Source: Candidatus Yanofskybacteria bacterium CG10_big_fil_rev_8_21_14_0_10_36_16 | Lineage (GTDB): Bacteria; Patescibacteriota; Minisyncoccia; 2-02-FULL-40-12; IGHO2-01-FULL-4-A | Direction of reading: 5' to 3' | Assembly (NCBI GenBank): GCA_002794035.1 | Contig: PCXQ01000004.1 | Coordinates: forward strand, 17,842 to 81,841 | DNA: 64,000 nt | In this document: positions 4,600 to 63,838 of the stretch, one piece after another | Position numbering within the stretch: the stretch's first letter is position 1 | Layout: the number at the start of each line of letters is the position of its first letter | Position numbers and translations under genes: made by a program | The notes under the pieces: model-generated | The model's input: only the letters and a program-made list of their open reading frames with translations | Database searches by the model: none | Told to the model about the DNA's origin: nothing

Positions 4600-7251
4600 T
4601 TATAGTCCCGCGAAATGTCTGCGGTGAAGAAGTTTTACAAATTCAATTATAAATAATTTTGTAATACCAATACCCATAACAAGCAAAGCATGTTGCAATA
4701 AAAGAGGCGATGTTCGAAGAACATGGTTTAGTTGTGGTAGATAAACTGCTGACACCATCATTGCAAAGCCCAGTGCAATAGCAAACAATAAGTAGCGATT
4801 ATTAAATAGATTCATTTTAAATATTGATTTATCTAATGATTTTAATGAGAAAATAAAGAATAACGAATCAGTGCCTAAGGTAGCAAAGATTATTGTTCTT
4901 ATATAGCTTATGTCGTAATGAGAGTACTTTAAAAAGAAGAAGAACACAGAGAAAAGAATAATATCTGTCATTATACCAAGAGGATATGCAATAAATGATG
5001 CTTCTCTGTCTAAAATTGGCTTATTCCTTTCTATTGGTTTTCGTTTTAAAACATCGTCTTCCGGAGGTTCAAAAGCTAGCGCAAAATTTGGCAAGCCGTC
5101 CTCTACTAAGTTGGTCCAAAGAATTTGAACAGCTATCAACGGTAAGGGGATCTTAAATAGTAAGGCTCCTAAAATTAAAATTACCTCCGTAAAAGAATTT
5201 GAAAGCATAAAAACTGTGACTTTTTTTATGTTGTCAAAAGCAGTTCTCCCCTGCTTTATTGCTTCAACAATTGTTAAAAAACTATCGTCTAACAAAATCA
5301 AATCAGCGGCTTCTTTTGTAACATCTGTTCCAGATCCTACAGCAACTCCTACGTCAGCAACTTTTAATGCCGGAGCATCGTTTATGCCATCTCCTGTTAC
5401 CGCTACCACCTCCCCTACTTCTTTCCATGCTTTTACTATGCGAAGCTTATGTTCCGGGTTAACTCTGGCAAAAATATCAATCTCTCTAATTTTTGTCCTT
5501 AAATCCTCATCGGATATTTTGTCCATTTCCGCCCCCTCCATAATTGAGTCTTGGTCGGTGGGTAACCCAAGTTCTTTTCCTATCGCTAATGCAGTTAGTT
5601 TGTGATCGCCTGTTAACATAACAAGCCTAATTCCTGCATCGTTAACTTCTTTTATTATTTCTTTCACGCCTTCTCTGATGGGATCTTTTATTGCTGCAAG
5701 GCCTAAATAGGTTATATTTTTAACAGAATTGACCATTTCTTTTTCGTTATATTCCAATACTTCATTTTCGTTGTTTTGGATATCAACATATGCTGCTGCA
5801 ATCATTCTGAGGCCATCTTTTGCCATTTCTTCATATTTAAGCTCAGCCTCTTTTTTATACTCTTCTGTTATCTTTTGTGCCTCTCCGTTTTTGTCCACCG
5901 ACTCAGATAGCTCAATTATTTTTTCAGGTGTGCCAGTAATGTAAACTCGAATCCCTGAGTCCTTTTTATGAAAAGAAGCAATAAATTTATTTTTGGGGTC
6001 AAAAGGTAAAATGTTTAAACGAGGCATTGATAACATTAATTCGTTATATGTCATGTCAGAGTTTTCAAGGAATGCTTGCATTTTTGCCTGATCAGTTGAT
6101 TCTCCTTTTATGGCAGGACCTTCTGGGGTGTTCCCAGATTGTGAGACTGGTTTTTCTACTAATGCTTCATTTGCCAGTGCCAGTGCTAAGTAAAATTCTT
6201 TTTTATCTGATTCGCTAACAATTTTTTCTACTGACATTTTGCCTTCTGTTAAAGTTCCTGTTTTGTCAGAACAGATAACCGAGGTTGAACCGAGTGATTC
6301 TGCTGCGATGAGTTGTTTTACCAATCCTTTTTTTGTGAGAATTCTACGGCTTGATACAGCAAGAATAACAGCTATTGTCGCAGGGAGGCCTTCTGGGATT
6401 GCTGCTACAGCAACTGCTATTGAGGTTATAAATATCTCAGTAAATTCAATTTTTTCATACCACCCAACACCAACTATTAAAACCGAAGCAATGGTAACAA
6501 TTATTGCTATTATTTTGCCCAAATGACCCATTCTTTGTTGAAGAGGTGTTTGATCTTCTTCTGCTTTTTTTGTAAGCTCTGCAATTTTTCCAACTTCTGT
6601 ATTTCCACTTGTTTTTACTACTATCCCTATTCCTTCACCCTTTTCAATTATTGAGCCTGTAAATATCATATTCTTTCTGTCGCCAACCACGACGTCTTCT
6701 TTTATTGAATTTGTGTTCTTGTTAACTGCCGACGATTCTCCTGTAAGAAGTGATTCGTTTGCTTCAAGATTTTTTGCATAAATCAGCCGAGCATCTGCCG
6801 GTACCTTCATCCCTGCTTTTATATGGATTATGTCGCCTATTACTAATTTTTCTGAGTCTATTTCGCGCACATCACCATTTCTTTGGACTCGAGCTATTAC
6901 TTTTACGATTTGTGTTAGCTTTTCGAGTGTTTTACCCGAACTGTATTCTTGGTAAAATCCTATGCCTATGTTTACTGCAACGGCTGCAAAAATTATTATG
7001 GCGTCTAGGTTATGTTCGATGGCGATAGATATTGATCCTCCTATAATAAGTATGTAAATAAGCGGGCTTTTTAATTGACTCAACAAAAAAAGTCCTAATC
7101 GGAAACGTTTTTCTCTGGGGAGTCTGTTGGGGCCTTGTTCTTTAAGGCGTTTTTCTGCTTCTTCTTCCGTTAAGCCTTTTTTGCTTGAGTTAAGACGATT
7201 TAAAACATCATCAAATTCAAGTTGATACCATTTTGTTGCCTCGTTTTGCAT
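4600..7251 (-). CDS. P-type cation-transporting ATPase, P2 (Ca2+/Mg2+) type
   Basis: LTGES, CSDKTGTLT and TGDGINDAPALKVADVGVAVG motifs. PEGLP in the TM region indicates P2-type rather than a CPC heavy-metal pump. 883 aa. Confidence 0.85.
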   Translation of the reverse strand: MQNEATKWYQLEFDDVLNRLNSSKKGLTEEEAEKRLKEQGPNRLPREKRFRLGLFLLSQLKSPLIYILIIGGSISIAIEHNLDAIIIFAAVAVNIGIGFYQEYSSGKTLEKLTQIVKVIARVQRNGDVREIDSEKLVIGDIIHIKAGMKVPADARLIYAKNLEANESLLTGESSAVNKNTNSIKEDVVVGDRKNMIFTGSIIEKGEGIGIVVKTSGNTEVGKIAELTKKAEEDQTPLQQRMGHLGKIIAIIVTIASVLIVGVGWYEKIEFTEIFITSIAVAVAAIPEGLPATIAVILAVSSRRILTKKGLVKQLIAAESLGSTSVICSDKTGTLTEGKMSVEKIVSESDKKEFYLALALANEALVEKPVSQSGNTPEGPAIKGESTDQAKMQAFLENSDMTYNELMLSMPRLNILPFDPKNKFIASFHKKDSGIRVYITGTPEKIIELSESVDKNGEAQKITEEYKKEAELKYEEMAKDGLRMIAAAYVDIQNNENEVLEYNEKEMVNSVKNITYLGLAAIKDPIREGVKEIIKEVNDAGIRLVMLTGDHKLTALAIGKELGLPTDQDSIMEGAEMDKISDEDLRTKIREIDIFARVNPEHKLRIVKAWKEVGEVVAVTGDGINDAPALKVADVGVAVGSGTDVTKEAADLILLDDSFLTIVEAIKQGRTAFDNIKKVTVFMLSNSFTEVILILGALLFKIPLPLIAVQILWTNLVEDGLPNFALAFEPPEDDVLKRKPIERNKPILDREASFIAYPLGIMTDIILFSVFFFFLKYSHYDISYIRTIIFATLGTDSLFFIFSLKSLDKSIFKMNLFNNRYLLFAIALGFAMMVSAVYLPQLNHVLRTSPLLLQHALLVMGIGITKLFIIEFVKLLHRRHFAGL

Positions 7252-62725: not shown

Positions 62726-63483
62726 TCAACTAACCGAAAGACGCTTTCTCTCCACCACGGCAATACCCCATATAGTGGCAAATATTATAATCAAAAATCC
62801 TATCACATTAATAATTGTACCTATAATTTCAGCCTGGTATAAAAGATTAAGGTGGTCCAACATATAATACCAATCATGAATCTCTCCACCAACAAGAGGA
62901 AGAGCTCTTGTTGGTGCGTCCAAGACCTGTAGAATTCAAACAAAATAACCTTGAGCGGATTGAATTTGAGCTGGATTCAAGGCATGAGGAGCGATATGTA
63001 CTTGATTGTACATGAGCGACAAGTAACGCAGAAGACGGTCCAAATTCAATCAGCCCGAAGGGAAGCTAAGAAATGGCTGATTTTTTTGTTGCTCCTCCTT
63101 GGAGTAGAATCTACACCTTCGTCGTTGCGCCGCAAAATCACCTCATTTTTCAGCTTCTCAAGATTGTTTGTGTTTGGATTCTACAGGTCCACATATACTG
63201 AAACATTAATAAAACTTTGGCCAAGCCACATAGTAACAAGAGATGCCGAATAAAACTGATCTTTTTTGAAAAAATAAAAAACAAATAAAGCTGGCATTAA
63301 TAATTGTAAAAGTGTACCACCGGCAATATAAATAAATTCTCCAAATGGCAAAAACACAAAATGTCCCGCTTCATGTATTATCAAATCAACGCCATCAAAA
63401 AAATGCCAGCCATCAAGACCGGCATATATAAAATAAAAGGCCACAATCATTAATGCCCCAAGTTTTATATAATGTTTTGACAT
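62726..63483 (-). pseudogene. Membrane HExxH metalloprotease-like gene split into two ORFs (63181..63483 and 62726..62923) by a 266-bp inverted-repeat insertion
   Basis: The N-fragment ends at a TAG supplied by the element's terminal repeat. Removing 62924..63189 joins ...INVSVYV to LDAPTRALPLVGGEIHDWYY... in frame. HEAGH lies in a TM segment. Confidence 0.55.
62924..63189. mobile_element. MITE-like 266-bp element with about 22-bp terminal inverted repeats (GACCTGTAGAATYCAAACAMAA)
   Basis: The left terminal inverted repeat at 62924-62945 and the reverse complement of 63168-63189 match 20 of 22 positions. Internal secondary inverted repeats (GATTGAATTTG). No ORF of transposase size. GC content is higher than the flanks. 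Confidence 0.5.
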
Positions 63484-63625: not shown

Positions 63626-63696
63626 TCGGGCCGCCGAGATTCGAACTCGAACTAGATCCTCCCAAAGGACCCGTGCTACCGTTACACCACGGCCCG
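63626..63696 (-). tRNA. tRNA-Pro (anticodon UGG)
   Basis: Reverse complement is CGGGCCG-TG-GTGT-AACGGTA-GCAC-G-GGTCC-TTTGGGA-GGATC-TAGT-TCGAG-TTCGAAT-CTCGG-CGGCCCG-A. The C1-G72 pair and A73 are typical of bacterial tRNA-Pro. Confidence 0.85.
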
Positions 63697-63766: not shown

Positions 63767-63838
63767 GCCCCGGTAGTTCAACGGATAGAACAAGGGACTT
63801 CTAATCCCTAAATGAGGGTTCGATTCCTTCCCGGGGTA
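63767..63838 (+). tRNA. tRNA-Arg (anticodon UCU)
   Basis: GCCCCGG-TA-GTTC-AACGGATA-GAAC-A-AGGGA-CTTCTAA-TCCCT-AAAT-GAGGG-TTCGATT-CCTTC-CCGGGGT-A cloverleaf. Confidence 0.85.

Follow-up and report, generated by a model that had tools for sequence, protein, structure and literature searches.

Bacterial MITEs, as reviewed by Delihas, are bounded by terminal inverted repeats (TIRs), carry a terminal 5'-TA-3' motif and lie mostly between genes, occasionally within protein or RNA genes (PMC2229807). The Correia/NEMIS elements of Neisseria, the RUP elements of the pneumococcus and the ERIC/IRU elements of enterobacteria are non-coding, TIR-bounded repeats whose ends pair in a long stem; they have TA at their ends or target, are mostly intergenic, often inside operons, and occur in either orientation (PMC2229807). 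Rickettsia palindromic elements (RPEs) are palindromic and mobile, lie inside conserved protein genes and in tmRNA and RNase P RNA, and do not all have TA ends (PMC2229807). In the CerM-associated intergenic repeats (CIRs) of Caulobacter, 5' and 3' sections separately form long stem-loop arms with linkers between them (PMC2229807).

In the CPR bacteria, Tsurumaki et al. (2024) found many rRNA-gene insertions that have neither an ORF nor a match to an intron model and left them unclassified, suggesting that some are intervening sequences cleaved by RNase III (PMC11270868). The main text of a 2024 survey of MITEs in 183,232 prokaryotic genomes makes no mention of CPR/Patescibacteria (PMC11602168), and our literature searches found no report of mobile repeats or MITEs in these bacteria.

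Here we describe a family of ~265-bp elements across Parcubacteria (CPR bacteria), of which no description was found in the literature. It shares with the Correia, RUP and ERIC elements all of the properties listed above. Unlike them, it measures ~265 bp rather than <200 bp, forms two hairpin arms in place of one simple stem-loop, is least conserved at its ends, is hosted by CPR/Parcubacteria and includes a copy, copy A, without a TA duplication. RUP has a matching IS, IS630-Spn1, whereas none was identified for the Parcubacteria family. Its palindromy, mobility, partial association with TA and copies in a protein gene and a 23S rRNA gene recall the RPEs, without sequence similarity to them; RPEs, however, are read through in frame into the protein, whereas copy A stops translation after two codons (its TAG is the third) and no open frame runs through the element fused to its host. 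The stem-loop arms and linkers resemble those of the CIRs, which are only partly MITE-like, have so far not been found inside genes and have no sequence relationship to the Parcubacteria family. Finally, one copy (J59) forms an extended stem-loop within a 23S rRNA gene, like 23S intervening sequences and the ORF-less insertions of CPR rRNA genes; unlike these, the family lies mainly outside rRNA genes and in either orientation. We consider it probable, at roughly 0.68, that these elements are a new MITE-like family of Parcubacteria that disrupted an HExxH membrane-protein gene.

An inverted repeat within a conserved gene

Copy A lies near the end of the window, the 64,000-nucleotide stretch of a Candidatus Yanofskybacteria contig that was analysed (Table 1). 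The family polarity, labelled E+, is defined by the plus strand of the window, on which the family profile scores copy A at 236 bits, against 38 bits on the minus strand (nhmmer). Its boundaries fit the rule for the family, by which the element starts 27 nt ahead of TTGAGCGG and ends 28 nt past CTTCTCAA.

The original prediction had described terminal inverted repeats of about 22 bp enclosing a segment with nested inverted repeats and a higher GC content, and each of these features is present. The two 22-nt cores are complementary at 20 of 22 positions (91%), and pairing of the ends reaches ~31 nt, with 28 consensus pairs. Two nested inverted repeats (62955-62968/63041-63054 and 63062-63075/63144-63157) form two internal arms, and the GC content, at 42.9%, exceeds that of the window (35.1%) and of the flanking gene (34.1%). 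An 18-mer of the copy A end matches just two sites in the 64-kb window, the two terminal repeats themselves, where 0.06 are expected, and at least two matches were obtained in 0 of 100 shuffles. In the RNA-fold check proposed with the prediction, both strands fold far better than shuffled sequences (z = -6.1 and -7.2). Furthermore, 1,000 bp containing the insertion are 100% identical across five independent assemblies, which excludes an assembly artefact.

Table 1. Features of copy A and of the gene that it interrupts, in window coordinates.
Feature	Position	Strand	Description
Copy A	62924..63189	+	266 bp; family polarity E+ is the window plus strand, antisense to the host gene
Left terminal inverted repeat (5' strand of terminal stem)	62924..62954	+	22-nt core 62924-62945
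Right terminal inverted repeat (3' strand of terminal stem)	63158..63189	+	core 63168-63189
Arm 1	62955..63054	+	covarying basal stem 62955-62978 / 63031-63054; apical hairpin about 62995-63013
Conserved internal loop of arm 1			GGCAUGAGGAGCGAU ... UGAGCGACAAGUAACGCAGAAG
Junction mini-hairpin	63055..63061	+	two bp, CC-CGAA-GG
Arm 2	63062..63157	+	basal stem 63062-63084 / 63134-63157; apical hairpin 63104-63114
Conserved loops of arm 2			UUGUUGCUCCUCCUUGGA ... CCUUCGUCGUUGCGCC
N-terminal half of host gene	63190..63483	-	98 codons, MSKHY...INVSVYV, contains HEAGH
C-terminal half of host gene	62726..62923	-	65 codons plus stop, LDAPTRALPLVGGEIHDW...; invariant D100, H114, D115, W116
Empty site expected at the copy A locus			GTATATGTG joined directly to TTGGACGCA

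Copy A sits in a conserved gene for a 163-aa HExxH membrane protein, which is now divided into halves of 98 and 65 codons. As predicted, the upstream reading frame is terminated by a TAG from the terminal repeat of the element: the minus-strand ORF 63181-63483 ends in ...VSVYV-D-L-stop, its GAC CTG TAG comes from copy A, and the reverse complement of the right terminal repeat gives this D-L-TAG. The second ORF, 62726-62923, does begin at the opposite boundary of copy A, with TTG. Removing copy A leaves an open frame of 174 codons in which ...INVSVYV continues into LDAPTRALPLVGGEIHDWYY, so that the in-frame fusion anticipated from the sequence holds, and the fused protein without the insert has 163 aa. 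The frame is therefore restored on deletion, as the description of a "frame-register" insertion implied, although no special coincidence is involved, because the frame returns whenever a clean insertion, one with no target sequence duplicated or lost, is deleted.

Searches with the fused 163-aa query returned 535 homologues, of which those listed are ~165 aa long and cover 71-99% of the query. Among the listed homologues the sole protein confined to the N-terminal half is the 100-aa ORF of Candidatus Yanofskybacteria CG10_big_fil_rev_8 itself, and all others are single junction-spanning proteins of 142-282 aa. An alignment of 23 sequences has no gap at the junction and keeps the spacing of the invariant Y97..D100. 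Conserved residues flank the junction on both sides, with HExxH in the N-terminal half and D100 and H114-D115-W116 in the C-terminal half, and both halves keep every conserved residue of the alignment. An AlphaFold2 model of the fusion forms one six-helix domain (pLDDT 94.2, pTM 0.88), in which the junction maps to the end of helix 77-99. A formerly intact gene of about 160 aa, as first proposed, is thus upheld by homologues of ~165 aa, the gap-free junction and the single domain at pLDDT 94. No informative match to the host protein was found in Pfam, NCBIfam, PDB sequences or PDB folds; it belongs to a family of HExxH-containing membrane proteins that is widespread and uncharacterised.

Public annotations give the two halves as separate hypothetical proteins, the N-terminal one as the 100-aa COV29_01840 and the C-terminal one as a separate 65-aa gene call in JGI assemblies, which would be expected if there had been no insertion at all and the two ORFs were separate genes or the repeat arose by chance or misassembly. 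We give this next to no credence. That the two ORFs are normally separate genes is refuted by the single junction-spanning homologues and the single-domain fold of the fusion, and a chance repeat or assembly artefact is refuted by a family of 13 copies and five base-identical assemblies. The split HExxH gene is most likely inactivated. There is a small probability that it is still in use, given that all conserved residues are retained although copy A looks degenerate.

A dispersed family in Parcubacteria

Gene callers often place spurious ORFs across repeats, and other members of the family were accordingly found through the translated element. Searches with this spurious-ORF protein returned nine cluster representatives by translation and 17 proteins by profile; their sources are groundwater metagenomes and NCBI MAGs labelled Parcubacteria group or Candidatus Yanofskybacteria. 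Each matched contig bears one copy (nhmmer), either full length or, in one case, a 212-nt deletion derivative. The family totals 13 distinct copies, 12 of full length (266-275 nt) together with the 212-nt H67, which has an internal deletion.

Copy B lies ~4.1 kb past the end of the window (L050:5897-6163), between rny (RNase Y) and hup (HU), which places two copies within 74 kb of the source genome. It is 74% identical to copy A over a 213-nt core (BLAST) and 67% identical overall. Its terminal stem is perfect, at 21/21, with a sequence unlike that of copy A; this differing but perfect stem was the earliest hint of compensatory evolution. The 11 further distinct copies occupy unrelated loci on other Parcubacteria contigs, among them ComEC-AAA, upstream of infA, T2SSE/nusA, fusA-tuf, the end of a PHP gene and a 23S rRNA gene. 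The last of these, J59, is ~267 nt long and lies in sense orientation in domain III of the 23S gene, near positions 1455-1590 of the LSU model; the same gene, in L059, also carries homing-endonuclease introns. The check for other copies proposed with the prediction was thus positive and defines a family, through copy B (67-74% identical) and the 11 copies beyond it.

Using nhmmer with the family profile, we found no further copy inside the 64-kb window. Scans of GTDB genomes, JGI metagenomes and IMG/VR for the copy A TIR, a repeat whose sequence varies between copies and whose source genome is absent from these collections, gave only single chance matches of 18-20 nt, and accordingly no autonomous partner. 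Scans of IMG/VR for the conserved-loop motifs likewise gave chance matches only, and blastn of one copy against plasmid and phage collections found no match.

These copies fit the size of MITEs (50-800 bp, with no coding capacity) at 266-275 bp, their TIRs (at least 10-15 bp) at 22 nt in copy A and 21/21 in copy B, and their dispersal with evidence of movement, with 13 copies at different loci. The only long frame of the element is broken, by stops in copy B and by the internal deletion in H67, in agreement with its description as non-coding. It encodes no transposase, as the prediction had stated; the element carries no gene, and the 10 transposase-sized ORFs of the window include no transposase, being ordinary genes apart from one without a Pfam match. 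The proposal of a MITE family therefore stands as regards dispersed, non-coding, TIR-bounded copies, and is at variance with the lack of a target-site duplication at copy A and with the combination of conserved loops and variable ends.

A conserved fold with variable ends

All copies share one fold, a three-way junction composed of a ~29-bp terminal stem, arm 1, a 2-bp mini-hairpin and arm 2. In each arm, ~100 nt long, a basal stem of ~20 bp leads through a large internal loop to a small apical hairpin, and arm 2 repeats arm 1 imperfectly in inverted form. Reverse-strand nhmmer matches with E from 1e-9 to 1e-20 show the whole element to be pseudo-palindromic, and despite this palindromy its polarity is clear (225-286 bits versus 13-71; nhmmer).

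Across an alignment of nine copies, pairing is kept in 95% of cells, and 61 of the 101 pairs have changed on both sides; column shuffling gives 25.7 +/- 3.3 such pairs (0/500 reach 61), and sliding the partners gives no more than 18. The terminal helix, present in all aligned copies, has compensatory changes in 24 of its 29 pairs, with 96% of cells paired, and the mini-hairpin pair 145/151 is CG in six copies and UA in three. Column identity, on the other hand, is highest in the internal loops (0.86-0.91; 0.89-0.90 in the loop of arm 1) and lowest at the element ends (0.73). The family is therefore unusually well conserved in fold for a MITE, and its conservation pattern is the reverse of that of a textbook MITE, the ends being least and the loops most conserved. 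At least 11 of the 12 copies retain a helix between the arms, GGCGCGA/UCGCGCC, and as a separate feature it is indistinguishable from the palindromic origin of the two arms. The ends (GTTCGAATCC) have a tRNA-like appearance, for which no T-arm fold was apparent on inspection.

Very strong covariation together with highly conserved loops is the usual signature of a functional RNA. The element might then act as a structured RNA, be it an intervening sequence that is mobile or an ncRNA with a function, which is removed, processed or bypassed at the level of RNA or of translation and leaves the split gene and the 23S gene with J59 functional. The scar-free, intron-like insertion of copy A and the retention of all invariant residues in both gene halves are consistent with this, as is the sense orientation of J59 in 23S, given the many uncharacterised ORF-less insertions in CPR rRNA genes (PMC11270868). 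In addition, if the boundaries are moved by 3 nt, the junction stays synonymous, the base preceding the 5' site is U and the intron ends in G. Group I introns in particular insert without a scar, have a comparable size and are frequent in CPR genomes; unlike them, the element pairs its ends over 30 bp, and copy A is antisense to the polarity that is sense in J59. The same conflict faces any RNA acting from one strand, as copy A would require the RNA strand to be E- and the 23S copy would require E+, against a polarity resolved at 236 versus 38 bits.

Searches for known RNAs also speak against such a reading. Neither copy A (E up to 1) nor D64 (E up to 10) matched any family in Rfam 15, whose group I, group II and small-ribozyme models were among those searched, and a group I core (P3-P9 by covariance model, in sense orientation) was found in neither of the two; yet the true group I intron in L059 was detected, at 59.9 bits. 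At the Rfam gathering thresholds, eight related loci contained only rRNA, group I intron and tRNA, and the element was unmatched. No exon-exon or exon-intron pairing was found at the junction, and neither a bulge-helix-bulge nor another exon pairing could be seen there by eye.

As for translational bypass, GAC codons occur immediately within the 5' end and immediately beyond the 3' end of copy A, and these resemble the codons used for take-off and landing in phage T4 gene 60. We estimate, however, that matching codons near both junctions occur by chance in ~20% of cases, and a translational bypass of 266-269 nt would be, to our knowledge, about five times the longest known example.

The strand tests bear on the same question. 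Orientation relative to the neighbouring genes is mixed, about five sense (G55, F68, K89, M87 and, in rRNA, J59) and four antisense (A, B, D64 and H67). The robust helices contain 23 G-U and 19 A-C pairs, without strand asymmetry and thus without the excess of G-U over A-C expected of an RNA, and the alifold energies of the two strands are -123.7 and -122.9. Because of the mixed orientation, the balanced G-U and A-C pairs and the equal strand energies, selection on a DNA-level or either-strand structure fits better than selection on a one-strand RNA. The enrichment of TA at the flanks described below likewise indicates DNA transposition. We therefore regard a structured RNA as improbable, and as highly improbable that the element is a structured CPR intervening sequence removed, processed or bypassed after transcription, with the HExxH gene functional and the fold kept for the RNA machinery.

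Flanks and target sites

TA is present on both flanks of 6 of the 13 copies (C63, D64, E61, F68, G55 and K89; P = 2e-11) and on the left flank only of H67, I60 and M87, which brings the left flank to 9/13 (P = 2e-8) and the right to 6/13 (P = 1e-4), tested against a background TA frequency of 0.070. Neither flank is TA in copy A (AA..CA), copy B (TG..TT, in E+ orientation), J59 or L88. In C63 and M87 the flanking TA belongs to the TAA stop codon of the neighbouring gene, and for C63 a TA-duplication model keeps this stop. Strongly enriched though not universal, the TA flanks suggest an IS630/Tc1-like or similar mechanism for most copies; MITEs derived from IS630/Tc1-mariner elements duplicate a strict TA target when they insert.

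Copy A is a clean insertion without duplication, at odds with the TA-flanked copies. It has no target-site duplication, and no direct repeat occurs at an offset of 266. A mutated TA duplication was rejected, as it would throw the gene halves out of frame. The 5-bp direct repeat GTCCA (62917-21 / 63186-90) was rejected as a target duplication too: it gives asymmetric ends, in conflict with the family boundaries, and the ancestral protein would lack one residue between the invariant Y97 and D100.

Insertion without target duplication comes naturally to single-strand mechanisms such as those of IS200/IS605-type elements and integron attC sites. In the manner of these systems, the family could in principle transpose in single-stranded form by means of a structure-specific enzyme, of HUH or another type; the absence of a duplication at copy A, compensatory changes that keep the hairpins rather than the terminal sequence, and G-T and A-C pairs without strand bias are all consistent with such movement. 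IS200/IS605 elements and their miniature derivatives, however, have no long TIRs, carry subterminal hairpins and choose sites 3' to a tetra- or pentanucleotide that is fixed, whereas the family ends pair over ~30 bp, TA is enriched on both flanks and the left flanks are not one fixed tetranucleotide, so that the missing duplication of copy A is the only feature that fits an IS200/IS605 derivation. Nor does a TnpA-like or integrase gene lie beside any copy. We consider movement by this route unlikely.

Age of the insertion

The family has been mobile in the recent past. G55 and K89, from one sample, are 94% identical and lie at different loci, which indicates that the family moved recently in at least one lineage. 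Copy A itself had been proposed as a recent insertion, and for this the evidence falls short. The nearest known copy is only 71% identical to it; its fold is the weakest of the 12 full-length copies and its count of unpaired stem positions (12/95) the highest. Copies A and B, in one genome, are at 67% as distant as copies from different organisms, and are thus unlike the product of a recent burst. Database searches retrieved neither the empty-site allele that had been named as a check nor a near-identical source copy for copy A, and among the listed matches the nearest uninterrupted homologue of the host protein is only 53-55% identical. Because copy A is the most degenerate copy, with no empty site and no close relative found in the databases, the term recent is unsupported for this insertion. 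The full preservation of both gene halves, for its part, mildly conflicts with an old one.

Discussion

The elements usually settle at TA in intergenic DNA, often at stop codons, and occasionally in genes, most copies perhaps by the IS630/Tc1-like or similar TA-targeting mechanism to which their flanks point. Copy A landed cleanly in the HExxH gene, the stop being supplied two codons into the element. Movement probably relies on an enzyme encoded elsewhere and acting in trans, for which the folded hairpins and the conserved loops may serve as recognition sites. Recognition of hairpins would in turn suggest a single-stranded or cruciform intermediate, and we propose that the compensatory changes arose because only lineages that kept the fold would go on spreading.

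At the locus itself, the two annotated hypothetical proteins are the halves of one disrupted gene. CPR genomes are tiny and streamlined, which makes a 265-bp family kept intact by compensatory evolution noteworthy, and the family occupies core operons (fusA-tuf, infA, nusA and rny-hup) and even a 23S rRNA gene. It is a candidate identity for some of the ORF-less, non-intron insertions in CPR rRNA genes, of which J59 is a concrete case. The alignment and fold of the family are ready for a covariance model for use in annotation, and in uncultured lineages the family also marks recent genome change.

Copies of the element in related loci

The element occurs in a range of genomic settings (see table below). 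The genome of copy A (the copy that splits the membrane-protein gene) carries a second copy, B, which is closed by a perfect terminal stem of 21 bp. Copies G55 and K89, which lie at separate loci in one sample, share 94% identity, and the differences between them are single transitions in the stems that are left uncompensated. Copy H67 is a deletion derivative in which the arm-1 loop is fused directly to the left end of the element. The same locus holds a further insertion, a PDDEXK_3 gene located between rpsG and fusA.

Copy J59 resides in a 23S rRNA gene that carries, besides a group I intron, one GIY-YIG and two LAGLIDADG open reading frames (ORFs). The outermost bases of the J59 stem, CAAGGC, match conserved rRNA sequence (E. 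coli CCAGGCAAAUCC). Among the related contigs, L061 and L062 differ at ~5377-6600: L061 encodes nusA as one 405-aa ORF, whereas in L062 it is divided into ORFs of 232 and 176 aa. The two are collinear apart from this split, for which a frameshift or a discrepancy between the assemblies may be responsible.

Coordinates of element copies, neighbouring genes, repeats and conserved loops
Feature	Position	Strand	Remarks
Copy B	L050:5897-6163		~4.1 kb past the window end; between, and antisense to, the RNase Y and HU genes
Copy G55	L055:5014-5282		TA..TA flanks
Copy K89	L089:1168-1436		TA..TA flanks
Copy J59	L059:4998-5264		Domain III of 23S rRNA gene
CPR 23S rRNA gene	L059:2710-8070		Host of J59
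Group I intron	L059:7262-7949		Inside 23S rRNA gene
Copy H67	L067:9979-10190		212-nt deletion derivative; between tuf and fusA; Candidatus Yanofskybacteria MAG
tRNA gene	window 63626-63696	-	Directly upstream of interrupted gene
tRNA gene	window 63767-63838	+	Directly upstream of interrupted gene
Inverted repeat	window 62887-62898 / 62905-62916		12 bp, perfect; 6-nt loop
Direct repeat	window 62917-62921 and 63186-63190		GTCCA (sense TGGAC), 5 nt
Arm-1 loop, copy A	window 62979-62994		Conserved
Arm-2 loop, copy A	window 63085-63103		Conserved

The interrupted gene and its insertion site

The fused protein (window 62726-63483), read with copy A removed, belongs to a widespread uncharacterised family of 165-aa membrane proteins (535 matches), with named members in CPR, Gemmatimonadota, Acidobacteriota and Poribacteria. 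HExxH, D and HDW motifs are invariant across the family, for which neither a structural nor a family match was found; the AlphaFold model of the fused protein is confident.

The C-terminal half of the gene contains, within its coding sequence, the inverted repeat near copy A, which lies 8 nt away from the point of insertion. Regions of dyad symmetry are targets for some mobile elements; no consistent hairpin was found in the flanks of the other copies. The direct repeat straddling the copy A insertion places a GAC codon just ahead of the stop codon supplied by the element and a second GAC just past the element. The pair is reminiscent of translational bypassing with its take-off and landing codons, a likeness that we judge to be chance.

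Conserved ends and loops

The element ends (GTTCGAATCC...) resemble a tRNA T-loop sequence but show no T-arm fold. The conserved loop of arm 1 carries a Shine-Dalgarno-like GAGGAG and that of arm 2 an anti-Shine-Dalgarno-like CUCCUCC, and the two are mutually complementary. At least 11 of the 12 copies retain an additional inter-arm helix, GGCGCGA/UCGCGCC, which could be a pseudoknot or just a remnant of the arms' palindromic origin.
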